Below, in pieces: positions 1,101-61,778 of a stretch of 64,000 bases of DNA. Each line of letters opens with the position of its first letter. Position 1 is the first letter of the stretch. Both the position numbers and the translations under genes were made by a program. The notes under the pieces were generated by a model, which was given only the letters and a program-made list of their open reading frames with translations, was not told the origin of the DNA and ran no database searches. The stretch is from a virus (taxonomy: Duplodnaviria > Caudoviricetes): positions 97,312-161,311 of IMG/VR virus record IMGVR_UViG_3300037067_019204. One strand, written 5' to 3'.

Positions 1101-1142
1101 TAAAATTAATACGATTATGGCTCCATAATCGTATTAATTTTA
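1101..1142. repeat. 42 bp palindrome, copy 1 (perfect 20 bp arms, CT core)
   Basis: TAAAATTAATACGATTATGG-CT-CCATAATCGTATTAATTTTA, overlapping TATAAT upstream of the GGCT gene. Confidence 0.9.
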
Positions 1143-1158
1143 TAATAGGAGAGTATAA

Positions 1159-1533
1159 TTGGAATATTTATTTGTTTATGGAACATTACGACAAGGATGT
1201 AGTCGTCATAATGTATTAATGAGTCATAGAGCAGAACTTGTTAGTGAAGCTATATGCAAGAATATGAAACTTCTTAATATAGGTTCATTTCCCGGAATGA
1301 TTGCTTCTGATAAAGAAGAAGATATGGTAAAAGGAGAACTGTATTTATTACCTGATCCTGAATCAATTATAAATATTTTAGATAGGATAGAAGGTGTGCC
1401 TTTTCTCTTTAGAAGAGAAGAAGTTGAGGTTATATGTAATGGTGAACCATGTACAGCATGGGCATATACTTATAATAGTAGTAAGAATAAAAGTTATGAT
1501 GTTATAGAATCGGGGGATTTTTTGGATATTTAG
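1159..1533 (+). CDS. Gamma-glutamylcyclotransferase (AIG2-like)
   Basis: LFVYGTLRQG, GELY, LDRIEG and AWAY motifs. Confidence 0.9.
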   Translation: MEYLFVYGTLRQGCSRHNVLMSHRAELVSEAICKNMKLLNIGSFPGMIASDKEEDMVKGELYLLPDPESIINILDRIEGVPFLFRREEVEVICNGEPCTAWAYTYNSSKNKSYDVIESGDFLDI

Positions 1534-1599
1534 CTTAAAATTATTAATAATTTATATATTATTTTAAGCATATAGTATTAGCAAGGAGAAGATTTAAAA

Positions 1600-2802
1600 A
1601 TGAAAAAAATAAAAAACAATAAAAAAGATTTAGATAAAAAATCTTCTAAAACGAAAAATGAAATTAAAAAGGAAATTGGGGAAAAAATAGATGTTCTTAT
1701 TAAGGATTCTAAATCTTCAAAAAAAAGATTTGAAAAAATTAAAAAAGATTTAGAAAGTAAGAAAATTAAAACTACAAACAAAGCAGAAAAAAATGAAATT
1801 GATTCAAAAATAAATAGTGTGGATGATGTGTTAGGGGATCTTAAATCTCATGTAAAAAGATTAAAAGATAAAAAACCAAAGAAAGAAAAATCTAAAAGTA
1901 AAAAATCTAAGCCAAAGAAAATACGCCCACCAAAAAAGAAAACACCTGAACAAGAATTTATTGCCCTTATAAAAGAAGGAAAACCTAGTTTAGAAGCATT
2001 CAAAGTTATATTTGATAATATCCAGACAGGTATATTTGATAGTATTCTTGAGTTATCACCTATTTTTGAATTTTATATAACTGAAAATAATGCTATGGTA
2101 TGGACCAAGGAAGAAAATCAAATATTAGCACATTCAAACTGTGAGGGAGAATTGGAGCTTGTAGAGGATGAAAAAGAAAAACAGATTGCAGTACCTTATG
2201 CTACTATTGGTGGTGATTGTGTCTTTCCTTTATCAAAAATTAAAAATAAAAAATCTATTTCTTATATTAAGGAAATGGAAAATTCAATTATAACTAAAAT
2301 AAGTGCTGATATAAAAGAAAAACTGATTAGTGCTATAGTAGAATTAGGAGATTTTGCAGACAAAAAGCATATTTTTCGCTACAAAAATAAAAAAAATAAA
2401 AATTCATTTTTTAATTTTATAATTAATGCTTTTGCTAAAACACCTATAAACATATATGGGACATTTCTTCTTTCCCAAGAAACAAAAGATATACTTATAA
2501 AATATAAAGAAGACATGAAACAACAAACCTCAGAAGAAGATGGGGAATATATTATTGTTCAAAATAGTATAGATATTATTATAGAGAATAGTGTTTTGTA
2601 TAAAAATTTAGCATTAGGTGAAATTTATTGTTTGGTTTATTCACCACATGGTAAACCTTTTGGTTATGCTGCTTTAAGAGAACTAATGGGGGTTTCTTCT
2701 GATAAATTTGTACTTGGTCAGCCTTGTTATGGGTATAGTGTTTTTTGTATGTTATCTTATGTAATCCCAAATATTCAGCAAGTATATAAAATTATATTAT
2801 AA
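1600..2802 (+). CDS. Lys-rich N-terminus fused to a divergent HK97-fold capsid-like domain
   Basis: About 115 aa K-rich N-terminus; C-terminal pattern (VPYATI...GEIYCLV..P..FG...RELM.V.SD...YGYSVF...IPN..VYKI) recalls jumbo-phage major capsid proteins. Confidence 0.45.
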   Translation: MKKIKNNKKDLDKKSSKTKNEIKKEIGEKIDVLIKDSKSSKKRFEKIKKDLESKKIKTTNKAEKNEIDSKINSVDDVLGDLKSHVKRLKDKKPKKEKSKSKKSKPKKIRPPKKKTPEQEFIALIKEGKPSLEAFKVIFDNIQTGIFDSILELSPIFEFYITENNAMVWTKEENQILAHSNCEGELELVEDEKEKQIAVPYATIGGDCVFPLSKIKNKKSISYIKEMENSIITKISADIKEKLISAIVELGDFADKKHIFRYKNKKNKNSFFNFIINAFAKTPINIYGTFLLSQETKDILIKYKEDMKQQTSEEDGEYIIVQNSIDIIIENSVLYKNLALGEIYCLVYSPHGKPFGYAALRELMGVSSDKFVLGQPCYGYSVFCMLSYVIPNIQQVYKIIL

Positions 2803-2811
2803 GCGGTTCAT

Positions 2812-5800
2812 ATGGCATTAGGTGATAAATTATTAGATCCCGGTTTTAACCCAACTGATCCATCACGATCAAAAATTGATGGCTTTCCTTATTTTAAAAG
2901 TGTAATAAAATGTCCTGTTACTTTTACCAATGATATTATTGAATACGCAGAGAGCAAGGATTTCATCGGGGGTAAACTTCGCCCTTTACAAAAATTATTT
3001 CTGGAAGAACTTTTTTCAAGAGATACTTTGGGCAATTACAGATATACTGAAGGTGTGCTGTGTTCAGGAATGCGCGGAGGTAAGACGCTTATAAAAGGCA
3101 CACCTTTGCTTATGTATAATGGCACAATAAAAAAAGTTGAAGAGCTTCATCTTGGTGATTTAGTAATGGGTCCAGATTCAACACCTCGTACTGTATTAGA
3201 AATACATAGTGGTGTGTCGGAGCTTTTTGAAATACAACAATCTTGTGCAATGACATATACTGTTAATGAATACCACATACTTTCTCTTAAAAAAGCCCAA
3301 TCAGCTAAAAATGCAGATTTAAAATCACGTAATAGCAGGGGACGTTTTCCCAACGAACCAGAAATTGTTAATATACCAATTAAAGATTATTTAAAAAAAT
3401 CTAAGAAATGGAAATATTTCTTTAGGGGGTACAAAGCAGGACTAATAAATTTTCCAATTAAGGAAGTTTTATTAGATCCTTACTTTCTAGCTTGTTGGCT
3501 TGCCGATGGTACATCTATAGCCCCAGAGATAACATCTCCTGATATAGAAATAAAAAGTTATTTACAAGATTTTGCAAATAAGAACAATTTAAGATTATCT
3601 GTTGGTAAGAAAAAAGGAACAACAGCAGAAACACTTCGTTTATGCCGCATAACGGGAATGGCAAATCCAATTTTAGATAAATTAAAATCTTTAAATGTCT
3701 ACAATAATAAACATATACCATTAGAATATATTGCAAATAGTAAAGAAATAAGATTACAAATATTAGCTGGGATGCTTGATTGTGATGGTTATTATACAAA
3801 AAAGCATGGATATGAAATAACATTAGCTAATAAAACATTGGCATATGATGTTAAACGTATTGCTGATACTTTAGGATACAGGACACACATAAGACATAAA
3901 AGAACAACATGTAATTATAATAATTTTGTTGGGGATGGTTGGAGATTATCTATTTATGGAAATGTTTGGGAAATACCATGTAAAGTAGAAAGAAAAAAGT
4001 ATGTTTACAATGGAAAGTTTTCAAATAAGGAGCAAGGTTTATCTTCTCTTAAAGTAACTTCGATTGGACAAGGAGAATATTATGGAATCGGTGTTGACAA
4101 AGATAACCTATATTGCCTAGCCGATGGTACTGTAACACACAATTCTTGGTTAGCTGCTTTAATTAGTACATATATGACTCAATTCATGCTTCAGTTTAAT
4201 GACCCTGCTGTCCAATTTGGGCAATCACCCGGAACTCGTCTTACTGCACAATGTATTGCCACAACAGAGATCCAAGCAAAAGAAACAGTTTTTGCCCATG
4301 TAGAAAGTTTGATTTCAAAAACAGATTGGTGGAAAAAATATATTTCTTATTTGGTGGAAAGGGAAACTGCTGAAAATAAAAAAGGTCAATTATTTACACA
4401 GTTTAAATTAGCATTTGAATTTCCTGAAAAAAGTTTAGCCATACTTTCTTTGCACTCAAACTCTGGTGCTTTAGCTGGTAAAACAAGTTATTGTGTTGTT
4501 CTTGATGAGCTTAGTCGATTTGATGTGGCAGAAGGGAGCGTACAAACAAGAGAGGAAAAAAGAACAGCCGATGCTGTATACTCTACTGTAACACGTTCTT
4601 GCTCAACACTGGGTGCAATAAGTAAAGTTGTAACCATATCTTCTCCTATGTTTGAAGACGATTACACCATGCAATTGGTTGGAATGGCTGGGGCGTGTTA
4701 TGTTAATCAAATGGCATCTATTATAAATCCTTTACGAACAAAGTATGATAGTAAAAGAGCACCTAGCTTATATGCTATGCATGCTACAAGTTTTGAATTA
4801 AATCCAAAAACAGAAGATAATCCAACAGGGCTATCAGAAGATGACCCACGATTTATTAATGAAAAACAAAAGAATCCTGAGACATATAGACGTGACTATT
4901 TAGCTATACCACCTGCAACTATTAATCCATTTTTTGAATATCCAGAACGGATTGATAGGGTTATCCATAAAAGAGATAAAATGGTATTATTTTCTGATAA
5001 AATAATAGAAGAAATGATTCAGAGTGATCATGGTGCTATTCAACGTTTATACATAGGAAAAAAAGTATTGCCTTTGATTCAAGATAGAATGAAGAAATAT
5101 TATGTTTGTGTTGACCAAGGAGAAAAGAAAGACCATTTTACATTAGCAATGGGACATGTTGAAGAGATCCCTATAGAGACTCAAAAAGAAAGTGGGGAAA
5201 AAGAAGAAAGAATAAGACTTAAAATAATTATAGATTTTGTTGAGGGCTGGGTTCCTGATAAAGAAAACCGTGTTACAGTTTCATTTCAAAATGTGGAAGA
5301 ATCTATTAAGCTTCTTTGCACATGGTTTAATGTTGGTTCGGTAGCGTATGACCAATGGGCATCTATTGAATCAATCCAAAGATTGTTTTCAGAAGGTATT
5401 TATACTCAACAACTTGGTGCAACAATTGAAATGTATGATATTTTTAAACAACTTATTTATCAAGGACAAATTGAACTTCCAGATCATGAAATTCTTTTAC
5501 GTGAACTTAAACAATTAACAAATATAAAATCTAAAAAAATTGAACACCCTGTTTCTGGAAGTAAAGACTACTCAGATGCTTGTTGCCGTGTTATTTGGTT
5601 GTGTTATGAAGAATATATCCTTAATACAATAGAGGGTAAACATATTTTACCCATGCGCCAGAGTCTTCCAACCATACGATCAGTTGCCACTTTTTATGAG
5701 TTAGCAAGAATGAATCAGAACAATCCCCATGCCGCTATATGGGGGCAGAGTCGAGCCGGAGAAGGGGTGTTTGGAGACGGGATGGTCGTGCGGCAAAATG

Positions 5801-5826: not shown

Positions 5827-5827
5827 T

Positions 5828-5865
5828 AAAAAAACGGGTAAAGACCTTTCGATCTTTACCCGTTT
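5828..5865 (-). terminator. Rho-independent terminator at the convergence point
   Basis: 13 bp stem AAACGGGTAAAGA/TCTTTACCCGTTT; GAAA tetraloop and U7 run on the minus strand. Confidence 0.85.
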
Positions 5866-5867
5866 AT

Positions 5868-6008: not shown

Positions 6009-6049
6009 AATTTATATTATATTTTTTCTTATATATTCAAGGTGCCTAT

Positions 6050-6362: not shown

Positions 6363-6377
6363 ATAATCACCTCTTAT

Positions 6378-7804: not shown

Positions 7805-7873
7805 TAAAAAATTATTAATTATAATAATAAAGGAAAAGTGTTTAGCTTTTCCTTTATTATTTCTTTATATAAA

Positions 7874-17404: not shown

Positions 17405-17878
17405 TTATTTATCTATTAATTCAATACTATTTTCAAATATTCTTTCTAGATCATCTGAATAACCAAATCGTTCTTTATTTATTACGATACTTTTTCGTAT
17501 ATTACCGTCGTCATGTCTCTTAGATGCACAATACCAATCAATAAACATTTCCATTATATCAACTAAATTCATATCTTTGATGCCGTTTGCAAAATGTTCC
17601 GTATGATGACGAGAATTTGCATAATGATGTATTAGTGCTGGTTTTAAGTCTTCTAGAGCCTGTTTATACTCTGGAGAACCATATGTTAATTTAGCCAGTC
17701 TTGGAGTATGTTTTGAAAACAAAGAAAATTCTGGTTCTTCTAGCTTTGTATTATCATGTTTTTCACCACGTTCTTTAATCATACTTGCTATTTCAAACAT
17801 TAACTTTTTAACATATTGTTTATGTTCCATTGTTTGTTCCATGCAAAAAACATCTTCTTTTGTTTTAATTTGTGGCAT
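17405..17878 (-). CDS. DUF5662-like HD-type phosphohydrolase
   Basis: HDNTK, YGSPEY, HHYANSRHHTEHF, DIMEMFIDW. Confidence 0.7.
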   Translation of the reverse strand: MPQIKTKEDVFCMEQTMEHKQYVKKLMFEIASMIKERGEKHDNTKLEEPEFSLFSKHTPRLAKLTYGSPEYKQALEDLKPALIHHYANSRHHTEHFANGIKDMNLVDIMEMFIDWYCASKRHDDGNIRKSIVINKERFGYSDDLERIFENSIELIDK

Positions 17879-18132
17879 AGTAATCTCCTACTTTAATATT
17901 AAATTTCCTTTTCTTTTTTGTTTCTTTTTAAAACCACTACATTCAAGAATTTCTTGGCATGGCATATTAAACAACCCAAATCCAACCAATGGGCAATTTA
18001 GAACTTTGTATGCCACATCTTCAATAAATTTTTCAGGATTTCCATCAAGAATATCATAAGTTTTTCGTGTTCGTATTTTTGTTATTAATGCGTTTTCACA
18101 TTTATTACAAATTGAGTTTTTTGGTATTTTTT

Positions 18133-19323
18133 TCATTTTATCCCAAACTCCCTTTTAACTAAATTTAAATATTCCGCATCTTGACATTGTGCCTTTTCAG
18201 GTTCGTCACTGATTTTAGCTACAGGTTTATCATTAACTCTTTGAATCTTCATCACAATAGATATAGGCTTAGAATTAGGAATATCATTGGTTAGATTAGT
18301 TCCTATGCCAAAAGATACGTTTATACTTTTATCAAACGTTCTTTTTAGTTTGATGGCTTTAGTAAAATTAAGATTATCAGAAAATATAATTGTTTTTGTT
18401 TTTGGGTCAATACCCAATTTTATATAATGATTAACTACTTTAGTTCCAATACTAAATGGGTCTCCACTATCTTGTCGAACCCCATCATACAGATTGGCAA
18501 AATATTTATCAAAATCATTCAAAAAAGCATCAATCCCAATAGTATCAGTTAATGCAATCCCAAGACTTCCACGGTATACATCTGCCCATTTCTGTAACAT
18601 AAATCTTTGGCTTTCTTTTAAAGATGGTGCAAGAACCTCACCTGCCATAAGCCATTCATGTGCCATAGTTCCCACAGGTTTAAGATTAAATCTTTTTGCC
18701 ATAGCCACATTAGATGTTCCCATAAACAAATTCCGGTCAGAGTAATAATTAAAATAATTAACAACATCTTCTTGCCAAGATTTAGAGAACCTTCTCCGTG
18801 TACCAAAATCTGCAAACTTTATCTCGTTTGAATTTGCTATTAATATTTTACGAAAGGTTCTGTCTATTCTTCCTTTTATAAAGAAATAGTATTCTTCCAT
18901 ATCAATAGCAGAAGGAATGGTGTGCCTAAAAAAAACTTCACTGATAATAGCTAACACAGGAACTTCAAACAAAATGGTTTCATACCAAGACCCTTTCACT
19001 TTAAAAGAAAAAGGTTTTTCATTCATTTCAATACAATTAAAATTAGGAGTATAGTCTTTAAGACTATCTATATAATCTTTATTGAAATAAGGAAGAGTAC
19101 TAAGATAACCCAATTCCTCATTAGTGAATTTAAGACTGCACCAATGTTTTAGCTCTTCTTTTATTTCATCATAATAAGGAGAAAGATCTTCCCCACTTCG
19201 GCATTTGAATTCATATTCCACCATTGTATCAGGAAATTGATGAAACACCGCATTTTGCATCGTTAATTTGTATAAATCTGTATCTAATAGACTATTTATA
19301 ATCATGGTCATACTCCCAATCAC
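18133..19323 (-). CDS. pncB: Nicotinate phosphoribosyltransferase
   Basis: LLDTDLYKLTM, DFGTRRRFS, GTSNV, GTMAHEW, LTDT, GVRQDSGDP, FGIGTNLT, AKISD. Confidence 0.95.
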   Translation of the reverse strand: MIGSMTMIINSLLDTDLYKLTMQNAVFHQFPDTMVEYEFKCRSGEDLSPYYDEIKEELKHWCSLKFTNEELGYLSTLPYFNKDYIDSLKDYTPNFNCIEMNEKPFSFKVKGSWYETILFEVPVLAIISEVFFRHTIPSAIDMEEYYFFIKGRIDRTFRKILIANSNEIKFADFGTRRRFSKSWQEDVVNYFNYYSDRNLFMGTSNVAMAKRFNLKPVGTMAHEWLMAGEVLAPSLKESQRFMLQKWADVYRGSLGIALTDTIGIDAFLNDFDKYFANLYDGVRQDSGDPFSIGTKVVNHYIKLGIDPKTKTIIFSDNLNFTKAIKLKRTFDKSINVSFGIGTNLTNDIPNSKPISIVMKIQRVNDKPVAKISDEPEKAQCQDAEYLNLVKREFGIK

Positions 19324-20131
19324 AGAATCTTCTCAATGAAAAACTTTCTGGGATTTTGTTTTTATGGTTATTCTTGTCATGCATTTGTTCCACAAACTGA
19401 AAACATTTTGAATCGGTGTTTACATGTGAAGTTATATATGAATTGTAGTAAGTCTTTATTGATTCTTCTATTTCATTATATGTAAACCCAAGTTCTCCTT
19501 CATCAGTTTGTCCTTCCCACAAACCCGCTGACGGAATTTTGTTTATAAGGTTTTCTGGGAGATACTTTGTATCAACAAAATATTGAAGTACTTGGTAAAC
19601 CTCACTTTTAAAAAGTTCACCTATAGGATTACAATCAACACCACCATCCCCATACTTTGTAAAGTATCCAATAAAGTTCTCACTCAGATTATCTGTTCCC
19701 ATAACCCGCACTTTATCATCAAAGAATGAATTAGATAATTCCTCCACAATAGAATACAGAATAGTCATTCTTAATCTGGCCTTCATATTTCCTTTTGTCA
19801 GTTTTGTGGTGGGATGGGAAGACGGATTTTTCCAAATCTTTGTTATAATTTCCTCTTGGAGCATTTCAGCTATTCCACCAACAGGAACTGTTATTGAATT
19901 TATACCTAAATGTTTAGCCAGTTTTGTGGAATCTGAATTAAATGTAGACAAGTCAAACCTATCTGCTGGCATATGAACACCAAATACTTTATTATTTCCC
20001 AGTGCCTGTACACAAAGAGTTGCCACAAGAGTAGAATCTGCTCCACCACTTAAACCAATGACAGCTATATCCGTGAATTCTTTAATTTGTTTGGTTATGC
20101 TTTTTATAAGACCCTGAATATCTGTTATCAT
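19292..20131 (-). CDS. nadE: NH3-dependent NAD+ synthetase
   Basis: GLSGGADS, GNMKARLRM, GYFTKYGDG, PSAGLWEGQTDE.ELG. Confidence 0.95.
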   Translation of the reverse strand: MITDIQGLIKSITKQIKEFTDIAVIGLSGGADSTLVATLCVQALGNNKVFGVHMPADRFDLSTFNSDSTKLAKHLGINSITVPVGGIAEMLQEEIITKIWKNPSSHPTTKLTKGNMKARLRMTILYSIVEELSNSFFDDKVRVMGTDNLSENFIGYFTKYGDGGVDCNPIGELFKSEVYQVLQYFVDTKYLPENLINKIPSAGLWEGQTDEGELGFTYNEIEESIKTYYNSYITSHVNTDSKCFQFVEQMHDKNNHKNKIPESFSLRRFCDWEYDHDYK

Positions 20132-20955
20132 TAATTATCTCCTAGATAAATTGTTCCCATAGATAAATCATCATAGTATTTCCAACCTAAAATATTGCAA
20201 TCCTTTTTGAATCTATTTAATCTCCGTTGAACAAATCTTCCAGTGAACAATTTAAAATTTGTTAATTCAGTTATCACTTCTATAAAACTTACAGGTTCTC
20301 CTGTTTTTATGTCAACAAAAGAATGGACTCCATCTGAAAACAAAGTAATCCATTCATAATCTTCTACAAGGAAAATAGATTTAAAAGAAATTCCTTTTTT
20401 TAAAGTAGTGATTTCATACTTTTTTTCATATATATTATAGTGTGTATGAACAAACCCCTCTGGTTCAATTTTCAAATACCCACTTTTTCTATATTTATCA
20501 AGGCTATAAGATAAATATGCAGGATACCCATTGGGGTATACAACATTATATGCCTGTATAATTCCACTTTTTCTTTTTGTTACTAATACTCCATCCCCCA
20601 TCATATCAATAGATACATATTTTATTCTACTAATTATATTTTTAGTAGGGTCAAAAGGATATTTTGCAATTAATAATGTTGAATCAAACATGTATGGGTT
20701 TGTTTTTAGTTCATACTCATATTTTGTTTCCAACATTTTTAATATGGCTGGTGTAATTCCCCCAATTCCGGTTTCATCAATTAATTGGTCAGCACTTAGT
20801 GCAAGCAATCGTGCGCCCACATCTGTCATTTTAGATGAAGAGCACCCATCACATATAATCATGTGTGTACCCTCTGCCCCCGGAGTACGACTGAGGGTAT
20901 AGTCCTGACAAATCTCGTGAGAGCTACCTATAGTAAAAGCTGTATCTGTATTCAT
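20131..20955 (-). CDS. PP2C-like protein phosphatase (TerY-P type)
   Basis: HEICQDY, IICDGCSS, GDG, LFSDGV, DDLS. Confidence 0.85.
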   Translation of the reverse strand: MNTDTAFTIGSSHEICQDYTLSRTPGAEGTHMIICDGCSSSKMTDVGARLLALSADQLIDETGIGGITPAILKMLETKYEYELKTNPYMFDSTLLIAKYPFDPTKNIISRIKYVSIDMMGDGVLVTKRKSGIIQAYNVVYPNGYPAYLSYSLDKYRKSGYLKIEPEGFVHTHYNIYEKKYEITTLKKGISFKSIFLVEDYEWITLFSDGVHSFVDIKTGEPVSFIEVITELTNFKLFTGRFVQRRLNRFKKDCNILGWKYYDDLSMGTIYLGDN

Positions 20956-20988
20956 ATAACTTTTATATTCCTTTGTATTTGTTTAAAT

Positions 20989-21016
20989 TATCGGCATTAA
21001 ACTCAAAAAACTTTAG
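20989..21016 (-). promoter_or_regulatory. Sigma28-type promoter
   Basis: TAAA-N16-GCCGATAA. Confidence 0.8.
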
Positions 21017-21058
21017 TAAAATTATTACGTTTATGGAGCCAAAATCGTATTAATTTTA
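21017..21058. repeat. 42 bp palindrome, copy 2
   Basis: TAAAATTATTACGTTTATGG-AG-CCAAAATCGTATTAATTTTA, abutting a sigma28-type promoter. Confidence 0.85.
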
Positions 21059-22034: not shown

Positions 22035-22847
22035 TTATTTCAGAAAATCAACTGTGGTTGAAACAGTCATTCCTTTTGAAACCATGCTTTTATAAAATTC
22101 TTCCGATTCCGGTTTTGAAGGAAGAACACAACTCATAGCATCTTCCAAAAGCACAATTTTTTTAACATAGCTGTCGTCTTTAAATTCAGACACAAGGTCT
22201 CTCAGTGTGTTAAACACACAGAAATCCTTTGCTTCCCCAGCAACAGCAATCACATCTGCTTTTTCCAGTGTTTCAATCAATCTTGTGTTAACCTGTGTGC
22301 ATGGGTCTGTTGGGTCAACAACATCTGCTCGAATGACACTGTAGTGTTCAGTGTAAGGATTACTGCCTTTTGTAACATAGTCCACCATTTTAAATGATGC
22401 TTCCCAATCCAGAAGCGCATCATATACTGCCGGATAAATACCATGACCTTGACTTCCTATAAGGCAATGGGGTGGCCAGATGCAAAGGGGGTATCGTCCG
22501 TTTTTATCAAGTGTCCTCACATATTCAAGACTTCTCTTGTAAAGAGAGGGAAGAGAGCTTGTCCATACCCCATTTTCCACATCCTTTACTGTAATGGTGG
22601 TAAAAGGTGTTGGGTGAGCACCAGATGAATCTTTCCAAAAGATTGGATGTGCAATATCCACAAAATGATGGGTATCAAGTGTTGCATGAATATCATTTAT
22701 CTTTGGATAAATTCTCCTGATCATTTTTGATAACCTTTCCATATCTGACTCAGCCCCAGTTACATAAAGGCTACCGGGGTATTTAGAGTTTGGGGGATTA
22801 CAAAAATCCTGTTGGCAATCAATCAAAAGCAAATCAACTTTAATCAT
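22035..22847 (-). CDS. pncA: Nicotinamidase / isochorismatase family
   Basis: LLIDCQQDFC, DTH, WPPHC, KG, AGEAKDFCV. Confidence 0.85.
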   Translation of the reverse strand: MIKVDLLLIDCQQDFCNPPNSKYPGSLYVTGAESDMERLSKMIRRIYPKINDIHATLDTHHFVDIAHPIFWKDSSGAHPTPFTTITVKDVENGVWTSSLPSLYKRSLEYVRTLDKNGRYPLCIWPPHCLIGSQGHGIYPAVYDALLDWEASFKMVDYVTKGSNPYTEHYSVIRADVVDPTDPCTQVNTRLIETLEKADVIAVAGEAKDFCVFNTLRDLVSEFKDDSYVKKIVLLEDAMSCVLPSKPESEEFYKSMVSKGMTVSTTVDFLK

Positions 22848-39687: not shown

Positions 39688-40836
39688 TTAGTCCTCTTCT
39701 TCTATTGACTTTAAGTTAAAAATTGGTTTCATTATAAAATGAATATCAACAGATTCCTCAATGGCATTTACAATTTGATTACTATCCTTATAAACCTCTG
39801 GAGATTCATCAAGAGTAGATTTACAAATACTTTTGCTCCATATGCCTTGCATATCCTCTTTCATTTTTTCTAATGATAATGTATTCTTTGCTTTCTTCCT
39901 GCTTAATACACGCCCCGCCCCATGAGGAGCAGAGAAGTTCCATTTTGGATTTCCTTTTCCTTCCCCGACAATAACACCATCACGCATATTTAAAGGGATA
40001 AGAACTTTTTCACCTTTATGTGCAGAGATTGCACCCTTTCTTATGATATTATCATTAAAGTTAATATAGTTATGGGCGCATTTTATAATTTCTATAGGTT
40101 GCGCATGAAAGAAATCAATAATTGTATTAGCAATACTTTTCCTGTTCAATTCAGCATAGCTTTGTGCTATCTTCATACTGTTTAAATATTCGGTTCCTCC
40201 GTAGTTTATTGGTAAAAATTCCAATCCTTTATAAATATCACCAATAAACATTTCATGCATCAGTTTTTTTGCTTTGTCCTGATAGTATTCACATATGGTC
40301 TTGCCAAAGTTTCGACTCCCCGTATGAATGGTTAACCACACATTACTATCAGGGTCTATATTCAGTTCAATAAAATGATTGCCACCACCCAAACTACCTA
40401 TACCAAGAATAACACGATTAACATCAACCCCTATCTTTTCAGCCAGACCTATGATCTGATCTTTGTAAGGTTGAGCTAATGATAGAAACTCAGAAGACGG
40501 TTTATTTCTCACATGAAAACCATCAGGTATATTAGTTCGTATATAATTTTCCAATGACTCAAAAAAAGAATCAGTCATTGATACTTTCCCAAGATTATAA
40601 GACTCAATACTGCAATGTATATCAACACCTATAACATTAGGGATAATATACTGATTTGATTGTTTGGTAAAACCAATACAAATTCCTTTGCCAGCATGAC
40701 AATCAGGCATAACAGCAATATATCCGTGTTCAAATGCAGGATGATTTAATATTGATTGTAGTTGTTCTTTCAATTCGTCTTCAATATTATCAATCATTAC
40801 ATTTGCGGTATTGTATTTGCCTTTAAAGGTAATCAT
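39688..40836 (-). CDS. rtcB: RtcB RNA ligase
   Basis: MPDCHAG, GVDIHC, LGGGNHFIE, HTGSRNFG, HNY, RKGA, SAPHGAGR, DESPEVYK. Confidence 0.93.
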   Translation of the reverse strand: MITFKGKYNTANVMIDNIEDELKEQLQSILNHPAFEHGYIAVMPDCHAGKGICIGFTKQSNQYIIPNVIGVDIHCSIESYNLGKVSMTDSFFESLENYIRTNIPDGFHVRNKPSSEFLSLAQPYKDQIIGLAEKIGVDVNRVILGIGSLGGGNHFIELNIDPDSNVWLTIHTGSRNFGKTICEYYQDKAKKLMHEMFIGDIYKGLEFLPINYGGTEYLNSMKIAQSYAELNRKSIANTIIDFFHAQPIEIIKCAHNYINFNDNIIRKGAISAHKGEKVLIPLNMRDGVIVGEGKGNPKWNFSAPHGAGRVLSRKKAKNTLSLEKMKEDMQGIWSKSICKSTLDESPEVYKDSNQIVNAIEESVDIHFIMKPIFNLKSIEEED

Positions 40837-40868
40837 TTTTTATCCTTGTTATCTTATTCATACTTACT

Positions 40869-40896
40869 TATCGGTAAGTTCTTTATAAAACTTTAG
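40869..40896 (-). promoter_or_regulatory. Sigma28-type promoter
   Basis: CTAAAGTTT...TACCGATAA. Confidence 0.7.
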
Positions 40897-41119
40897 CATT
40901 TTTTATAGTAAGAAAAGCTTTTTTACAAGGCTTTTCGTTTTTAGCTTTATCTAACCCATGAATACGATGTGTTGGGTTTTCTAACCAAAAATTACAACAT
41001 GTAGATTCATTAAAGCAAAGAGCTTCATCTGCTGTACCTTGCTGTCTATCTATACTTCCATATGGTCTAAACCGTGGGCAATTTGGCCCACACTCTTTTA
41101 TTTCTATGATCTTTGACAT
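40883..41119 (-). CDS. Small Cys-rich 'KII-CxxxC' family protein
   Basis: MSKIIEIKECGPNCPRF. Confidence 0.75.
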   Translation of the reverse strand: MSKIIEIKECGPNCPRFRPYGSIDRQQGTADEALCFNESTCCNFWLENPTHRIHGLDKAKNEKPCKKAFLTIKNAKVL

Positions 41120-41123
41120 AAAT

Positions 41124-41408
41124 TTATATTTTAAGAATAGCTATCCTTCTATAAAAACAACAGTCAATAGGAAATGAATTTTTCATTATAGCAGTTGTTT
41201 CAGAATGAGAACCACTAGAATGAGACCAGAAAGGTGAACGAGAGGGTGAACGAAATCTTTTTATCCAAAAATTATTTCCACCACCACTTATACTAGTTTC
41301 ACTAAAACAAGCAATACCTTCTGGGGAAGATTGATTTACTATGTACCCGTATGGTTTAAAAAAAGGACAAAATGGCCCACATTCTTTTATTTCTATGATC
41401 TTTGACAT
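41124..41408 (-). CDS. Small Cys-rich 'KII-CxxxC' family protein
   Basis: MSKIIEIKECGPFCPFF. Confidence 0.75.
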   Translation of the reverse strand: MSKIIEIKECGPFCPFFKPYGYIVNQSSPEGIACFSETSISGGGNNFWIKRFRSPSRSPFWSHSSGSHSETTAIMKNSFPIDCCFYRRIAILKI

Positions 41409-41878
41409 ATCTTAGTTAAACTTTGACTCCGGTGGACGAGGCAAAGACTTTGCACTTCTTTTTTTGGGATGTTGCGGCGACCCCGGTGGTAAACACGGTT
41501 TGGAAAAATATTCTTCTTTAGGTTTATGCATACATAAACCCTCAGTTAAATTTGGAAGATCAGAAAAAGGTAACGCACTTTTTTGTTTGGGTAAATAAGA
41601 TTTACGATTATCCAGTTTTCCTCCTTTTAACTTATCAGATTGTATTGGTTTAATATAATAAGCCAATGGGGGATATATTGCGTTCCCGGTTCGGCTATCA
41701 AAAGCACGACCCCCTGTTAACCAAATAATCTTATACTGTTTTCCAGTATTGACATCATACTTATATGTTGTATGAGTAATTTTTTCATAAGATGGTGTGC
41801 AAAAACCAGAATCACCAGTACAGCGTACAGTATCACCTTTTATTAGTTTTTGTAATTTCATATTACCTCTTTATATTA

Positions 41879-41920
41879 TAAAATTAATACGATTATGGAG
41901 CCATAAACGTATTAATTTTA
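41879..41920. repeat. 42 bp palindrome, copy 3
   Basis: TAAAATTAATACGATTATGG-AG-CCATAAACGTATTAATTTTA. Confidence 0.9.
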
Positions 41921-42564
41921 TTTACATTCCCCATCCTTTTGTGTGTTTCTTCCACAAAGATTTTTTTCTTTTTAACATTCTTGCTAATTGAAAGAAGTCC
42001 TCATACTTAAAAGTCTTTGGGGCTTTCCAAATAGTTTTCCATTTTTCATTACTCCCTAACAAGTTACTTCTTGTTTCTACTTTGGTTATACTCCCCATAT
42101 GAATTATATGTATGTTATTTCCAGAATAAATTCTTGTATTCCCTGTCCACAAACCAACAGGAGAACACAAAACTATACTTCCTATTCCTCCACATTCATT
42201 GGGGCAGTCAATAGACATAATAGCATCAGGGATAATAGACCCTTTTCCAAATTCTATTATTGCGTACATGTTGCTCCCTCTCCTGTTGTGGGTTCTGGTA
42301 GTAAACTTATATAACCTATACTTACAAGATACAGGTTATTATCTGAATCACATTTTACAAGAACCTTTGCAAATCTACGAGAAAGTCTAGGCACATAACC
42401 AAATCTTTCTTTTAAAGACTGTCTATCAATGCATATTTGTTCGACTCTTCCCATATGATTGAATCCACCACCCGCATTTTCTATACCAGTATAGAAAAAA
42501 CTAATATGTTGACCCACCTTTAAATTTTTTCGTGATTTCATTTTATTTTATTCTTATGATTACT

Positions 42565-42592
42565 TATCGTCATGTTTCATGAAAAACTTTAG
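42565..42592 (-). promoter_or_regulatory. Sigma28-type promoter
   Basis: CTAAAGTTT...TGACGATAA. Confidence 0.65.
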
Positions 42593-42599
42593 TACTTTT

Positions 42600-42821
42600 T
42601 TATTTTGTTAATATTTTTAAATGACAGCCCAAAGGAAAGCCATATCTGTTTCTTAAAACACCAACTCTAGGATTATGTATCCAAAAATCTTCAATTAAGC
42701 TATTTTGATAATAGCAAACTAATACATTATTATGGTGGTGGTCTTGACTCCACATTCCCCCCGCAGGGGTGAATCTTGGGCATAAGTTACAGCAATTATT
42801 TAATAAGATTATTTTACTCAT
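42600..42821 (-). CDS. Small Cys-rich 'KII-CxxxC' family protein
   Basis: MSKIILLNNCCNLCPRF. Confidence 0.75.
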   Translation of the reverse strand: MSKIILLNNCCNLCPRFTPAGGMWSQDHHHNNVLVCYYQNSLIEDFWIHNPRVGVLRNRYGFPLGCHLKILTK

Positions 42822-43030
42822 GCTTTTAAAAAACAATTATGTTGGAATCTTTTCTCTCTATTAGAAAGACGAGACATATTATCTATATACATTCCTGAAA
42901 ATCCATAAGTATCCCGTACCAAACAAGCTATTCTTGTTATACCATGACTTACATCTTCGTTCCCATCATTATATCTTGTACTATATGGGCATAGAGGAGA
43001 GCATTCTTTTAATAAGATTATTTTACTCAT
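42818..43030 (-). CDS. Small Cys-rich 'KII-CxxxC' family protein
   Basis: MSKIILLKECSPLCPY. Confidence 0.75.
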   Translation of the reverse strand: MSKIILLKECSPLCPYSTRYNDGNEDVSHGITRIACLVRDTYGFSGMYIDNMSRLSNREKRFQHNCFLKA

Positions 43031-43476
43031 TACTTTAATGTAAAGGTAATGGTATGCTTAAGTACAGCCCTATAAATTTTACCATTAACATTAACTATCC
43101 CAATGTCAGGGTTATCATCCTCTATTTCTACTTTATCATTACAAAACTGTTGCATGGAATTAAAAAGTTCGGTTTTATTTTTAGCAGTAACAATATCATA
43201 CCACCAATTATCATTACCAAAAGTAGTATACCAATAAGGTTGTTTAAGCAATTCTTCAAGTTCTTCATTCTTAAAATACTCAGCTTCTACAATTTGTATA
43301 AGAAATGGCATAAGATCATTGTTCTTTTGTAATTTTGCAGGAAGGATTGGTATTAGTCTTTTGACTATAAAACAAGGTCGTTCGTGTTGTTTAATTTCAG
43401 TAAGAGACTCAGATGTAAAGCCACAGTAATCACACTGATAGAAAGTCTTTAATGTGGTTTTTGTAATTTTTTTCAA
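43030..43476 (-). CDS. Zinc-finger protein, paralog of 46171..46656
   Basis: YQCDYCGF...HERPC; KQPYWY. Confidence 0.6.
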   Translation of the reverse strand: MKKITKTTLKTFYQCDYCGFTSESLTEIKQHERPCFIVKRLIPILPAKLQKNNDLMPFLIQIVEAEYFKNEELEELLKQPYWYTTFGNDNWWYDIVTAKNKTELFNSMQQFCNDKVEIEDDNPDIGIVNVNGKIYRAVLKHTITFTLK

Positions 43477-43524
43477 TTGTCTTTTCCTGTTATTAATAGT
43501 TTAATAAGTCCCACTTTCTTTACT

Positions 43525-43552
43525 TATCGGTAAACATGTTATAAAACTTTAA
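43525..43552 (-). promoter_or_regulatory. Sigma28-type promoter
   Basis: TAAAGTTT...TACCGATAA. Confidence 0.7.
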
Positions 43553-44269
43553 TTATTTCCTTATTTGGCTTAAAATATTTCTCTGGTTTGCAGGTAAGCC
43601 ATATTATATGATCAGGGGAATATAGTTTAAAAAATGTTCCTGCTATCCAAAACCCTATTGTGCCATCAGGTAGTATTGCAATTCTTGCTTTAACAGTTTT
43701 ATAATAATAGAAACTATATTGGATGTAATCAAACCCAAATAATCTATGCAAAATTTTATACATATTGATTGGTTTCCTTTTACTATATATATTTAATTAT
43801 GCTCATTATTTCTTCATCAGTGGGTTTACGGAACAAGGAAATAGTTTGTGTCATATTATTTCCCTCTGTCCCATCATGCCTAATATGAAATTTTGGGATA
43901 CATGGTTTGCCAAGAGTATAATCATGTCCATTATCTGTTTTATCCACAGGAACAACCACAACAAAGTTTGGGAATTCCTTGATACGTGCTGGTTCTGGTG
44001 ATGGAATAGTTGAAGGGAGAATAATTTTTTCATCTATAGCCAGACTGAAAATTTCAGCCAATATTTTTCTGTTATGGGGGTCAGAGGTTCTATCTATAAG
44101 AGCCGCCATTTTTTTTGCTTTTCCTGACCTTTGCATACCAAGAGTTTTTTCTTTTTCTTTTTGAAAAAGTTCCCCGTTAAAAAATTCCTCGGTTCGTTGT
44201 TTGCATATATCAAATACATTGATTTTATTTTGTTTCTTAGTTATCATATTATCTCCCCTTTATTTTACT

Positions 44270-50718: not shown

Positions 50719-51363
50719 TTATTTCCTTTCTTCTTTTTTGGCCTCACGTTCCCTTTGTTTCAGGGCTTCGAGGTTCGATTCTGCCTTTTTCCTTATTTCT
50801 GTCACCACAACAGAAGGACAAAGTTTAGCTTCGTTTAAAGTTCGGGAGAACCTTTTATCAATTAACTGTAAAAGTTTTTCACGATCACTTTTCTTTCTTT
50901 TTTTGTTTGGTTGAAAGGTGACATCCTTTAAAGATTGATATGCTGTGGGCAAGGATATACCAAATTTCTCTGCCACTTCTTTAGCAGTTAATTTTTTCTT
51001 TGTGATACGGGCATAGTTTGCAATTACATTCCTGCGAACTTGACGAGTGAAGTGGCGGCGTATAACATTTTCCCGCATCATAAAATCAATCATATCTTCT
51101 TTGGATTCAAACTTCTTGAAGACACAGTTGATGGTTTTATGACCTGCCGCTTTTGCGGCGGCAAGCCTGTTCATGCCACAGACTACAGCATAGTTTTCTG
51201 TAATTTCTATGGGTCGATCCAGCCCAACACTACTAATACTATTAGCCATAGTTTTGAGGTTATCCCCGTTTTCTATGGGAAAAAGTTCAGTGTTAAGATC
51301 GTTTTGAGGTTTGAGTTTACTGATAGGCACAGCGACAATTTTCCCCACAACAGTGTGCTTCAT
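50719..51363 (-). CDS. ParB-like N-terminal domain + HTH protein
   Basis: SISSVGLDRPIEI...VCGMNRLAAAK, ENVIRRH, HTH TAKEVAEKFGISLPTAY. Confidence 0.8.
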   Translation of the reverse strand: MKHTVVGKIVAVPISKLKPQNDLNTELFPIENGDNLKTMANSISSVGLDRPIEITENYAVVCGMNRLAAAKAAGHKTINCVFKKFESKEDMIDFMMRENVIRRHFTRQVRRNVIANYARITKKKLTAKEVAEKFGISLPTAYQSLKDVTFQPNKKRKKSDREKLLQLIDKRFSRTLNEAKLCPSVVVTEIRKKAESNLEALKQREREAKKEERK

Positions 51364-58096: not shown

Positions 58097-58118
58097 TTGT
58101 CCTTACCTCTGTTTTATA

Positions 58119-58145
58119 TATCGGCTTTTATTTAAAAAACTTTAG
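58119..58145 (-). promoter_or_regulatory. Sigma28-type promoter
   Basis: CTAAAGTTT...AGCCGATAT. Confidence 0.75.
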
Positions 58146-59998
58146 CGAATTTTTTATTCGTGCAAAAAAAGCATGGGTTCGAATCTGCCTTGCTTGCAGA
58201 TATTCTAATGAATATACTCTTGCTTCAAGGTAGTCTATATACCTGTCTTTACAATGGGAGCATTTAGAAGAAAAGGTTTCACCTTTTGGTAAAACCTTTT
58301 CAATAAACTCTTTCTTGTATCCGTATTTATCCGGGTGATTATCCATTTTGTTTCTCCTCAATAATCTTTTATTATTCCCTCAATCTCTTTTTTCCATTCA
58401 TCTTCAAGAAAGACACGCCGAGTGTCATAACATTCTTGTAATGTTTCTTTGAGAGCTTTGGCGGTTTCTTTGAACCATTCTTCATCTATACCACCATACT
58501 TAAAAGAAATGGTTACTTCTTCATATTCTGGGAATATGCCGACACTCATATCGCCCCTATCATCTATGAATAGTTTTATTTGTTGTGGTTCTTTTTTTCC
58601 TTTCATTTTAAGTTCTCCACTTTTTTCATGGCCACGAGGTATTTAGCGTATAAATTCCCTTTGGCCACGAGTGCAAAGGGCCGACCACTTGGCATGGTAC
58701 AATATTCCAGATATTGTTTAATCACCTTATCCGCAGCCGTTAAAGCTTCACGGAGGGCGGTGATTTCTGCTTCGGCTGTCATCGTCTTTGGCTTATATGC
58801 AGTGCAATTACAGCCATTGGCCAACCTGGTTAAACAATGCTTTACGGAATTATCACAACTATCACATACGTTCATATTGGTTCCTTTTGTGATATTCGTT
58901 TAATATTTTTAGCTTCAACTTTTGTTATCCAACGATAACTGATTTTGTCTATCAGAATATATCCATAAGATATTACTGATTCTGATAATCCTGTTGTCAC
59001 TTTTTGATAATCAAGATACCTTGAATTATTACATTCTGGGTGTAATTCTGAATCATGTTTTGTAAATTGTCTTTTCTCGATTACCATATTACCTTTTTTT
59101 GGCAATACAGAAGCGATTTTCTTTTGCTTGGTATACTCTTTTTCCTTTTGCTCTTTTTGATATTCTTTATATCTCCAAAGAACATCGCTTTTCTCGTTAT
59201 TTGAAAGGGTGTGAAATCGACGACCTGATTGACGTGCATACCACAATTCAAATTCAGTGGGTTTTCGATCATATTCCCAATCATATCCCTCGTCGTTATT
59301 CATTTAAATCTCTCCACCTTATTTATAGCTGCTTGATAAATTTTGTATATTTTCAAGTCATCAGGAAATGGGATATATAATATTTGTAATAAATTATTAG
59401 CCGCAGTTAGAGCTTCGCGGAGAACAATTATTTCGTTTTTTAGTTTAGTTGTTTCACAACTGCATGGATTATCATAATCCGGAAGTTCACCAAGTTCACT
59501 AATGGTTCCACTGCAAGCTCCACATATAATCATATTGGTTATCCCCTTTTTGTCTGTGCAGGGAGCGATACTCCCTCACTTCTTAACACATTTATTACAG
59601 TATCTCTCTTATCCTTTTAGCAATTTGTTCAGTTGTGTCAAGCATATTAAACCATATATTTTTACCGCCGGTATAATCTGTAAAACCCTTGACGGTTCTG
59701 TAGTATCCGGTTGTGTCACATGTTGTGCCACATGTTCCGTCAGTGTTGAAATGCAGATAAAACATTCTGCCATTCTTTTCACCGAAGAAAGACACATCAC
59801 CACTACACGCAATACCTGCTTTATTGTAGTAGTATCTATAATTATCAAGCCCCAATAGCTTGACTAATTCATTACAAAAACCCTGCCCAGCACGGGCGAA
59901 TTGCTTTTTATATGCTTCATCATATCTGAAAGAGTACATACCATTTTTTTCAATAAAGTTTTTGAGTGCGTTCATTTTGTTTTATCCTTTGATTTATA

Positions 59999-60025
59999 TA
60001 TCGGCATGAATTAAAATAACTTTAG
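59999..60025 (-). promoter_or_regulatory. Sigma28-type promoter
   Basis: CTAAAGTT...TGCCGATAT. Confidence 0.75.
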
Positions 60026-60471
60026 TTTTTTTCTTTATGTTTTATCTTTCTTGAATAAGTCTTTTTTGACTTAATTGTTTTCGGTGCGGGCGTGTTCAAT
60101 CGTAACCCGCACGTTTGTTGGATTGTCTTATGTTTCTTTTTAGTAGTCATAATACATTTGAAACTCACGCAGACTTTTTATTCTGGGTCTGCTTTTTTTG
60201 TTTTTGCATTTAGGCCGCTGGACCATTGCACCACAATGAGAGCAAGGTTTATTTGGGACAACTGGGCTGTGTCCACAATTTGAACACCACGGTGTTGAGC
60301 TTCCGTCAGTGCAAAGTACAGCAGTCTGTGATTGTTTTTTGATCGTCATATCTCTCTCCAGAATCTTAATTCTTTTTATTGTTATGATATACATTCAACA
60401 TGGCCACACCTACAACAATTATTGTAGATACACCAGCAGTAATAAAGTACCATTTGAGTGCAATTATTATT

Positions 60472-61128
60472 TCATTCATCACGCATACCCCGATTTAATA
60501 ATTCATTCACTTTTATTGTTCTGTTATTCTTTTTGTAGCACATAAGACATTCTGCGCACGACCGTTGACAATTTATTTTTGTTGCGCAGAAGTTTTTGTC
60601 TGTGTATACAGTAAAAACTTTATTAAATCCTATCGGAATATCATATAAAGGTGCATTGATTGTAGGATTACTGTATATATGAATAAGATTTTTCAGCCTG
60701 ATTATTCCACCTTTACGAATAATATCCAGTCTTTTTGTGAATAAAGTAAAGGTAATATTCGGATTATGTTCAGCTATAACAACATAATTTTCATAATGAC
60801 GGCGGTTCCCTAATTCACCATGCGCATTAAATCTGAAAGAGTTATATTCATTTTTAACTCTCGGCACACGGTATTTTGACAAATCAATTGACGTTAAAAT
60901 ATCGTAATTCATTGCCCATGATTTATGCGCGTTTTTGTAGAATTTCTCAAAACGGAATGAATAACATTTAGTACAGATAATATTATTATCTTTACTGTTA
61001 TGCATGGCTACACAAAAAGGATTTGCCGATGGTGATACACTTAAGCTGCACATCCCCTTCATTTTTCCCGACATTTTATCTGTAATACTTAAAACATCGG
61101 AGGGAGTTATTTTAAATTTGACTGACAT
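60472..61128 (-). CDS. GP88-like / radical-SAM-like Fe-S protein
   Basis: C...CTKCYS, FRFNAHGEL, FTLFTKR, CQRSCAECLMC. Confidence 0.6.
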   Translation of the reverse strand: MSVKFKITPSDVLSITDKMSGKMKGMCSLSVSPSANPFCVAMHNSKDNNIICTKCYSFRFEKFYKNAHKSWAMNYDILTSIDLSKYRVPRVKNEYNSFRFNAHGELGNRRHYENYVVIAEHNPNITFTLFTKRLDIIRKGGIIRLKNLIHIYSNPTINAPLYDIPIGFNKVFTVYTDKNFCATKINCQRSCAECLMCYKKNNRTIKVNELLNRGMRDE

Positions 61129-61150
61129 TTTGTATCACCTTTATTATTTA

Positions 61151-61177
61151 TATCGGCATGATTATACAAAACTTGAG
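61151..61177 (-). promoter_or_regulatory. Sigma28-type promoter
   Basis: CTCAAGTTT...TGCCGATAT. Confidence 0.7.
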
Positions 61178-61476
61178 TGAATTATTTATCTATTCAAAAT
61201 ATTGTGCAATTTCAACTGGTAGATTATTGATTATATAATCGTGCCGCAATTTCCAATAATCATATTCATTAACATCATTGGTTATATCTGTGTCACCTTC
61301 GGAGCAAATAATTTTATTATCTATGAATTTATAACCATAGTTTAATTGTCGGCAATCTCTCATTTCTGGAAGGTTATGCATTAACCAGACTTTACAAACT
61401 ATCTCTTTTTCTTTTATAGCTTGTTTAAAAGTCATCTTATTCATATATATAAAATTATTCATGGTATCTCCTTGTT

Positions 61477-61512
61477 AAAGACTGCCTATTAAAAATATAA
61501 CAGGCAGTCTTT
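61477..61512. terminator. Terminator-like hairpin after 61516..61710
   Basis: AAAGACTGCCT/AGGCAGTCTTT stem. Confidence 0.6.
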
Positions 61513-61736
61513 TTGTTACTTAACTTTGGCGATCAGACCGTTTTTCATGGTGACTTCTGCGAACCATTTACGGTGTGGACCTGCGTCAGCTACACAGAAA
61601 GTACCATCGGATCGATACTCCGTCCCGAACATGCTGGTTTCGTTGTATCGCAATGGTTGACCAATATTTTCTTTCAGCTCTTTTTTGGTCTTGTAATGAG
61701 CTTGTATCATATACCTTTTTCCTTAAAGTTATATTA

Positions 61737-61778
61737 TAAAATTATTACGATTATGGAGCACTAATCGTAATAATTTTA
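61737..61778. repeat. 42 bp palindrome, copy 4
   Basis: TAAAATTATTACGATTATGG-AG-CACTAATCGTAATAATTTTA; the arms co-vary (ATTATTACG/CGTAATAAT). Confidence 0.85.

Follow-up and report, generated by a model that had tools for sequence, protein, structure and literature searches.

A palindromic element of up to 42 bp, made of two inverted 20-bp arms around a 2-bp core, occurs ten times in the genome of a tailed phage (Duplodnaviria; Caudoviricetes; IMG/VR record IMGVR_UViG_3300037067_019204), and we consider, with a probability of roughly 55%, that its copies are duplex-DNA docking sites for a dimeric protein specific to this phage lineage, which would probably act on transcription through intergenic gaps. 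The DNA analysed here (the window, 64,000 nucleotides) corresponds to bases 97312-161311 of the record, a linear sequence of 161,311 bp that is ~65% complete according to CheckV and of which the window forms the right end. A preliminary description of the window had reported four palindromes almost exactly 20 kb apart and proposed that they were genome-scale sites of one of several kinds, an account that our analysis confirmed in part: the even dispersal, the doubt about ordinary operators and the presence of a ParB_N + helix-turn-helix (HTH) gene stood, and the strict period, the oriented core and the recombinase, cruciform and classical parS interpretations did not. To our knowledge, almost nothing is known about how large phages control and organise genomes of >200 kb, and a long, strongly conserved, non-clustering dyad site provides a handle on the control of such genomes.

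All four 42-bp dyad elements of the window were recovered: copy 1 (window 1101-1142, genome 98412) is a perfect 20+2+20 palindrome with core CT on the plus strand, copy 2 (window 21017-21058, genome 118328) has arms differing at three A/T positions and core AG on the plus strand, copy 3 (window 41879-41920, genome 139190) has one A/T mismatch between its arms and core AG on the plus strand, and copy 4 (window 61737-61778, genome 159048) has CACTAA instead of CCATAA in its inner right arm and a T at half-site position 9 in both arms. Searching the window with the half-site TAAAATTAWTACGWTTATGG returned nine matches with at most 3 mismatches, against 0.11 expected. The whole 161,311-bp record contains ten members of the family, where chance would give none, with left ends or cores at genome positions 15930, 39827, 50708, 58665, 67238, 78482, 98412, 118328, 139190 and 159048. 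Five are full 20+2+20 palindromes (50708, 98412, 118328, 139190 and 159048), three have unrelated sequence in place of one outer arm (15930, 39827 and 78482) and two consist of a 22-bp core only (58665 and 67238); no further core was found in the record with at most 4 mismatches, and matches with 5-6 mismatches were at the level of shuffled sequence.

The unit that is always kept is the 22-bp dyad core ACGWTTWYGG-NN-CCRWAAWCGT, optionally flanked on each side by an AT-rich 10-bp extension (TAAAATTAWT). The inner ten bases of the 20 half-sites have the consensus ACGWTTWYGG, with A11, C12, G13, T15, T16 and G20 invariant in 20 of 20, and A/T swaps, mostly at positions 9, 14 and 17, account for 16 of the 23 substitutions, a pattern that fits shape or minor-groove read-out of the DNA. 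A sub-family B (15930, 39827, 58665 and 67238) is defined by a linked change, from TTATGG to TTTCGG. Ten sites of 22-42 bp that are nearly identical cannot each have arisen independently, and the linked TTTCGG variant in four copies implies copying from a common source, so that copy-and-paste spread is part of the history of the family; judging from the invariant positions and from the conserved orthologue described below, the core is kept by selection now.

This orthologue lies on a metagenome contig of 1,989 bp (L036), ~84% identical to and colinear with genome 97557-100533, which carries the element at the place corresponding to copy 1. The two elements share 39 of 40 arm bases, in flanks that are ~82-84% identical (~82% over the 140 nt upstream), a difference to which our own binomial estimate, not the result of a tool, gives P ~3.5e-3. 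The 2-bp core is AG in the contig and CT in copy 1; the one is the exact reverse complement of the other, so that a flip of the centre seems likelier than two point changes. Taken as a record of sequence evolution, the comparison shows arms under purifying selection and a core whose polarity is not selected. As the contig is independent and has the element at the orthologous place, the element is not an assembly artefact; a sequencing-adapter artefact was likewise ruled out by the site in an independent sample and by the diverged copies. Apart from L036, exact-pattern scans of IMG/VR, JGI metagenomes and GTDB genomes yielded chance matches only, and no GenBank phage match, near or distant, was found. 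Relative to window 1143-1160, the contig has an extra 216 bp (L036:911-1141) with open reading frames for small membrane peptides, starting at the base after the palindrome, and it lacks the 400-aa gene of window 1600-2802.

The capsid protein of the phage defines a large family of ~210-250-kb phages, in which one capsid relative (P0001, 27.7 kb) is 99% identical. Four genomes of this family, G001 (217.7 kb), G002 (252.9 kb, with terminal repeats; IMGVR_UViG_3300033143_006101), G003 (236.4 kb) and G004 (179 kb), have core genes in common with this phage at ~25-86% amino-acid identity, most at 40-65%; colinearity was examined for G001 and G002. The element was absent from the syntenic gaps of the relatives, including G001, from 31 loci of the capsid family and from a relative of the NAD module (L132), and no long dispersed repeat family was found in G001-G004. 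G002 has a 20-22-bp dyad word of its own, TTAACTATGGATCCATAGTTAA, in 11 copies (at 22228, 81027, 95228-98772, 122102, 128697 and 246203). Its copies lie between a stop codon and the next ribosome-binding site, as in this phage, and they are clustered rather than evenly spaced, with 6 of the 11 within 3.5 kb of a small-gene region (95-99 kb), once as a tandem pair. This word and the 42-bp element have an inner TATGG-NN-CCATA in common, which could arise by chance at the ~5% level; if the likeness is real, related binders with drifting specificity may exist in the family.

Selection on the element appears to act on the duplex rather than on a folded strand. In an alignment of nine sequences, 83.2% of cells were paired, against 83.3% when the 3' letters were shuffled among copies, and double-sided changes numbered one, against 1.3 expected in the shuffles. 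The preliminary description had pointed to a compensatory change in both arms of copy 4; that change exists, but it is the single double-sided change observed and comes with no excess of pairing. The element looks palindromic because both arms match one half-site consensus and not through selection for a hairpin, and symmetry of this kind is expected from a protein dimer that is itself symmetric and reads duplex DNA.

All ten copies are intergenic. Six of them (50708, 58665, 67238, 98412, 139190 and 159048) are flanked by co-directional genes, in gaps of 50-577 nt, where the element begins at most 3 bases from the stop codon in three cases and the next ribosome-binding site follows within 4-25 nt in several. 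Copy 15930 is 8 nt upstream of a tRNA-Leu(caa) gene. A classical terminator (39912-39945) precedes copy 39827, which opens with TAGAAT; these six bases stand 17 nt after GTGACA, together forming a good sigma-A-type promoter (GTGACA-17-TAGAAT). The genes on either side of copy 78482 are convergent, and a normal bidirectional terminator adjoins the copy. These contexts (upstream of a tRNA, in co-directional gaps, at a convergent junction) are too mixed for simple promoter operators, which agrees with the view taken in the preliminary description that the sites are not ordinary operators. That description had also placed a promoter element at the edge of each copy. A TATAAT does border copies 1, 3 and 4, and a sigma28-type box borders copy 2, but a promoter role is doubtful at copies 1 and 3 because a ribosome-binding site follows the TATAAT directly at copy 1 and after five bases at copy 3, leaving too little room for a start site. 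A general arrangement in which the outer arm TAAAAT would be the -10 box of a sigma-A promoter was rejected, a good -35 box being found at copy 39827 only.

We propose that the 42-bp element would serve as a docking site on double-stranded DNA for a phage-encoded symmetric dimer or dimer of dimers, predicted to be specific to this phage lineage. From its position in a short gap, usually between a stop codon and the next ribosome-binding site, the bound protein would most likely block or gate RNA polymerase, as an operator or a roadblock. One site overlaps a -10 box (39827) and one abuts a -35 box (118328), and with about one site per 8-24 kb every long stretch of transcription would carry one. 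The dyad word of G002, found in gaps of the same kind, and the precedents of SPBRE/MrpR and the Cluster O repeats also favour this reading. On base rates drawn by analogy from SPBRE/MrpR, the L5 stoperators, the conserved inverted repeats (CIRs) of phiC31 and KorB, genome-wide control of transcription would be the most probable job of the sites.

Several observations weigh against this proposal. No binder was found, and no gene flanking a site gave a match to a DNA-binding family; a phyletic-pattern search for genes common to this phage (G000) and G002 only returned 13 genes, none of them DNA-binding. A recognisable promoter is touched by only 2 of the 10 sites, none of the ten lies in a divergent promoter region, and site 78482, between convergent genes and next to a normal terminator, has nothing obvious to regulate. 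The operators of known repressors are not evenly spaced, the SPBRE sites of SPbeta clustering at 64-100 kb with gaps of 1.7-16 kb, and the even spacing seen here is left unexplained by an operator or a roadblock. Since the transcription reading does not account for this dispersal, a genome-organising role retains some probability. The hairpin, terminator, recombinase and classical parS readings each fail a defining test.

To assess the spacing, we used as a null model the random choice of sites among the phage's own intergenic gaps. The successive gaps measure 23.9, 10.9, 7.9, 8.6, 11.3, 19.93, 19.92, 20.86 and 19.86 kb, those inside the window being 19916, 20862 and 19858 bp. A spacing of almost exactly 20 kb thus describes the five right-hand consecutive sites (19.9-20.9 kb) and not the remaining gaps, which range from 7.9 to 23.9 kb. 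The preliminary description had named irregular spacing elsewhere in the genome as what would refute its periodicity, and scanning the whole record gave a divided answer, with one further gap of 19.93 kb and a left half spaced at 8-24 kb. The claim of unusually even dispersal was upheld: for ten sites a gap coefficient of variation (CV) of at most 0.36 had P=1.4e-3 and a smallest gap of at least 7.9 kb had P=2.2e-3, and for the eight long copies the gap CV was 0.23 (P=3e-4). A run of four gaps within 5% of one another had P ~6e-5, with a threshold chosen after the data were seen; only one out-of-sample test is clean, that of the first gap beyond the window, which matched (P ~0.05), and the gaps farther out did not match. 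As many windows were screened, these P values are suggestive and not decisive: they suggest that the sites avoid clustering more than chance allows, and a fixed period is not established. A 20-kb segmental duplication was rejected as the source of the spacing, as an all-against-all BLASTP showed paralogue families only and no colinear 20-kb repeats.

The alternative that survives best is that the sites are loading or anchoring points for a ParB-type or other DNA-bridging or sliding protein, with any effect on transcription secondary and with selection maintaining intervals short enough for the protein, reaching ~5-10 kb in either direction from a site, to cover all of the chromosome; we regard it as possible but clearly the less probable of the two. 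It would account for the even spacing beyond chance (in the eight-site and ten-site tests as in the run of four gaps, with the post hoc threshold of the latter) and for the mixed contexts, including the convergent junction, and it draws on a lineage-specific ParB-fold protein encoded by the phage and on the example of KorB, a ParB-family clamp loaded at dispersed operators of plasmid RK2 (PMC11790492). Only 5 of the 10 sites follow the 20-kb spacing, however, the out-of-window test giving one matching gap and then non-matching ones; G001-G004 show no lattice of this kind and the related word of G002 is clustered; and P values near 1e-3 are not decisive after a screen of many windows. If the even spacing is selected, it points to a distance-limited process (sliding, spreading or looping) on phage DNA. 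In its fullest form, with spacing-selected loading points every 10-20 kb for a genome-coating or loop-forming protein, possibly P0121, organising a ~250-kb chromosome as a wider habit of large phages, the idea is a tentative one.

Two ParB-fold genes are present in the record. The first, whose presence at window 50719-51363 (minus strand) had been noted in the preliminary description and was corroborated by Pfam (ParB_N, E=1.9e-6), encodes P0121, a ParB_N + HTH protein of 214 aa and the only named candidate binder. P0121 aligns to Spo0J (1vz0) over the N-domain and the HTH, with GMNRLAA where Spo0J has GERRYRA, so that two of the three CTP-box (GERRxRA) arginines are missing, which makes CTP-dependent clamping doubtful and counts against P0121 as the loaded protein. 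It has no homologue in G001-G003 and no close relative in IMG/VR, and its distant homologue in G004 (23% identical) belongs to a phage without a comparable repeat family. What ties P0121 to the sites is lineage specificity alone, and we treat it as a candidate only.

The second gene, P0122 (genome 60902-61840), has the canonical box GERRFRAA and its own cluster of sites: ~300-400 bp upstream lie three 14-bp palindromes GGAAAT-CC-ATTTCC (GGAAATCCATTTCC) embedded in direct repeats of 45-54 bp, and after these comes a very AT-rich stretch. This array spans genome 60489-60850 (locus L093:1079-1440), 36.5 kb to the left of the window. In G001 the corresponding region upstream of the P0122 homologue contains six GTGACA-N4-TGTCAC sites. 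The likely partner of P0122 is accordingly the GGAAATCCATTTCC array and not the 42-bp element, and this looks like a parS-like or origin-like array changing together with its ParB. A search for ParA-type ATPases (PF13614) gave no match in the 161 kb, in a record that is incomplete as stated above. The parS-like loading sites proposed in the preliminary description are, in their classical form, at odds with these results, as no ParA was found, the candidate ParB has GMNRLAA at the CTP box and the canonical ParB adjoins its own clustered array; the same three observations speak against a genome-organising lattice.

It is also conceivable, though unlikely, that the family is the relic of a small mobile or recombination-spread palindrome, either like a miniature inverted-repeat transposable element (MITE) or as a module boundary, with little function beyond the exchange of gene cassettes. 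The family must have spread by copying, as the linked change of sub-family B indicates; it is lineage-specific, being absent from G001-G004 and from the 31 other family loci; several copies stand at indel or synteny breakpoints, with the 216-bp indel of L036 beginning at the edge of the palindrome and the T5 A1-like gene beside 78482 absent in G001; and the inversion of the core from one orthologue to the other suggests template switching or else recombination inside the arms. In form, the two inverted 20-bp arms start and end in TA, with no clear duplication in the flanks. Neutral relics would decay randomly, however, whereas the variation here is confined to A/T swaps at fixed positions with six positions invariant in all half-sites, and the orthologous copy is strongly conserved. 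Random insertion would not give even dispersal, the genes on both sides of site 67238 are syntenic in G001, which excludes a breakpoint there, and no transposase or recombinase family was found among the ~70 proteins scanned.

An RNA hairpin between cistrons, whether it served as a terminator (intrinsic or bidirectional), was processed by RNase III or was bound by an RNA-binding protein, is less probable still. It would suit the sites that directly follow stop codons within co-directional gene runs, the A- and T-rich tracts at the ends of the arms and the folding of the perfect copies (-17 to -21 kcal/mol, z=-3.2 to -5.6). Besides the lack of covariation, 3 of 8 copies fold no better than shuffles as RNA: the full copies 118328 and 50708, each with three arm-to-arm mismatches, are at shuffle level (z ~-1; -9.9 kcal/mol and z=-1.0 for 118328), and copy 15930 fails to adopt the hairpin. 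The same three of ten pairs are mismatched in all four B-type cores (ACGATTTCGG-NN-CCATAAWCGT), copy 3 was not called by a terminator scan of window 40000-44000, a canonical terminator already precedes site 39827, and the element has no match to an Rfam family. The cruciform or hairpin function suggested in the preliminary description finds no support in these folds or in the pairing statistics.

The preliminary description had further held that the core reads CT in the direction of transcription. This is true of the four window copies, and held because of which four copies fell inside the window: over the nine sites with a direction, the core is CT in 5, AG in 3 and GT in 1, and the tenth lies between convergent genes and has no defined core direction. 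Serine-recombinase crossovers, with programmed inversion or deletion of ~20-kb segments, would explain the form of the element, whose two inverted arms flank a non-palindromic core of 2 bp (CT/AG in 9 of 10 copies), but are highly improbable, given that neither the serine recombinase family (Resolvase, PF00239, for which control genomes do match) nor the tyrosine recombinase family (Phage_integrase, PF00589) had a match in the 161 kb, that core polarity is mixed between CT, AG and GT and flipped between orthologues instead of being used consistently, that synteny with G001 and G002 shows no inverted or deleted segment between sites, and that 20-bp arms are far longer than hix/gix-type sites. 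A homing-endonuclease target was rejected as well: with two LAGLIDADG motifs, the enzyme encoded 385 nt from copy 15930 is of the monomeric type, whose targets are asymmetric.

The record has a GC content of ~31% and falls into three blocks. Genome 1-60.6 kb contains minus-strand genes, including tRNA arrays, an HK97-fold capsid gene (42200-43363) and a portal-like gene of 1452 aa. Genome 60.9-103 kb contains plus-strand replication and packaging genes (ParB, SbcC-like, ribonucleotide reductase, DNA polymerase, UvsX-like, DnaB-like, a sigma factor and, at 100123-103137, the terminase), and genome 103-161 kb ~150 small minus-strand genes. Copy 1 lies between a gene for a 78-aa membrane protein and a plus-strand GGACT-family gene (gamma-glutamyl cyclotransferase-like, window 1159-1533, E=6.7e-25). 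Copy 3 is one base after the stop of a minus-strand gene (window 41922-42269) and 17 nt before the ATG of the next (window 41412-41861, minus strand, 149 aa), which has no family match. The gene downstream of copy 4 (window 61516-61710, minus strand) encodes 64 aa and belongs to phrog_37117, of unknown function.

At copy 2, the -35 box of a sigma28/SigD-type promoter (CTAAAG-N15-GCCGATAA, window 20987-21016, minus strand) starts at the base after the element. About 15 such promoters, of the form (C/T)TAAAGTTTT-N11-(G/A/T)CCGATA(A/T), precede small minus-strand genes; they span window 20994-61160 on the minus strand (genome 118305-158467, with 14 at 118-158.5 kb), with one at genome 31491, and the ~14 others are without a palindrome. 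The phage encodes a sigma factor at genome 97215-97964 (window 1-653, the 5' end of the gene being outside the window) and, at genome 23358-24089, a paralogue 26% identical to it. Downstream of copy 2 is a minus-strand NAD-salvage operon (window 17405-20955) comprising a first gene with a weak PP2C-like match (20131-20955), NAD synthase (19292-20131), nicotinate phosphoribosyltransferase (NAPRTase, 18133-19323) and a DUF5662 gene (17405-17878); a NADAR gene is found at genome 34397-34825. The operon may be a counter-measure against host defences that deplete NAD.

Copy 78482 is adjoined by a minus-strand segment (genome 78620-80886, locus L045:2620-4886) with the T5 A1-like gene, present in G002, and a neighbour of 175 aa with a weak HTH match; the A1-like product is a "DNA transfer protein" of 549 aa with a metallophosphoesterase match (phrog_1745, E=8e-81). 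A 373-aa protein (genome 93964-95085, locus L013:13964-15085) has a weak match to PhuZ/TubZ-like tubulins (E=1.1e-6) and is kept in G001 and G002 at 51-59% identity. Three free-standing homing-endonuclease genes were found. That at genome 16357-17379 (locus L009) encodes the double-motif LAGLIDADG enzyme, with two N-terminal HTH modules, beside tRNA-Leu genes, and has a 33% match in G002 and none in G001. The other two are of the HNH type, one at 89680-90819 with no match in G001 or G002, the other at 20246-20764 with a match in G002 only.

Among known systems, plasmid-prophage N15 has a few dispersed sopC-like centromere palindromes that serve a partition protein and need SopA/SopB; this phage differs in that no ParA-type ATPase was found and its canonical ParB has a clustered array of its own. 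Mycobacteriophage L5 (stoperators, repressor gp71) and Streptomyces phage phiC31 (CIRs) each have many repressor sites in short intergenic gaps inside operons, and a repressor bound there halts passing RNA polymerase, beyond acting at promoters. The likeness to our element is the many copies in short intergenic gaps; L5 stoperators are 13 bp, asymmetric and strictly oriented, the CIRs are 17 bp, and we know of no report of even spacing for either. A further difference is that this phage is not shown to be temperate.

In plasmid RK2, palindromic sites scattered over the replicon load KorB, a ParB-fold protein that acts on promoters at a distance (PMC11790492). Scattered palindromic sites and a ParB-fold protein encoded in the window are common ground with this system. 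The KorB operator OB is 13 bp long and parS 16 bp, unlike the 22-bp core and 42-bp full element described here, and P0121 differs from KorB and other ParB proteins of this kind in lacking the two CTP-box arginines, with no ParA found.

Dispersed dyad repeats have a precedent in Cluster O mycobacteriophages, where Corndog has >30 copies of the 17-bp repeat TGTTCGG-NNN-CCGAACA in ~70 kb, a third of them inside genes and denser at one end (PMC4351075). This phage has instead 10 copies in 161 kb, all intergenic, evenly dispersed and with a 22-bp core or 42-bp full length, and the sequences are not similar. The two have in common one dyad word used genome-wide, invariant arms, a variable spacer, no meaningful orientation or strand bias and many intergenic copies, and the function and the binder of both are unknown; our element therefore belongs with the Cluster O-type repeats as a class of form, without implied homology.

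Dispersed dyad sites bound by a phage regulator are known from SPBRE/MrpR of SPbeta (PMC10516654). SPBRE is a 15-17-bp motif, ATACATATTWTTTGTAT (derived here from SPBc2), and always stands 20-60 bp ahead of a gene start. The fold of MrpR is that of a tyrosine recombinase, a family (PF00589) with no match in this record, and the motifs are unrelated in sequence, so that neither an SPBRE-like motif nor a repressor of that fold places our element in this system. The likeness is that of ~ten copies of one conserved element over a >130-kb genome. The SPBRE operators, too, were predicted in silico, long before their binder was known, and ChAP-seq then showed them to be the sites of the MrpR/YopR repressor (PMC10516654).

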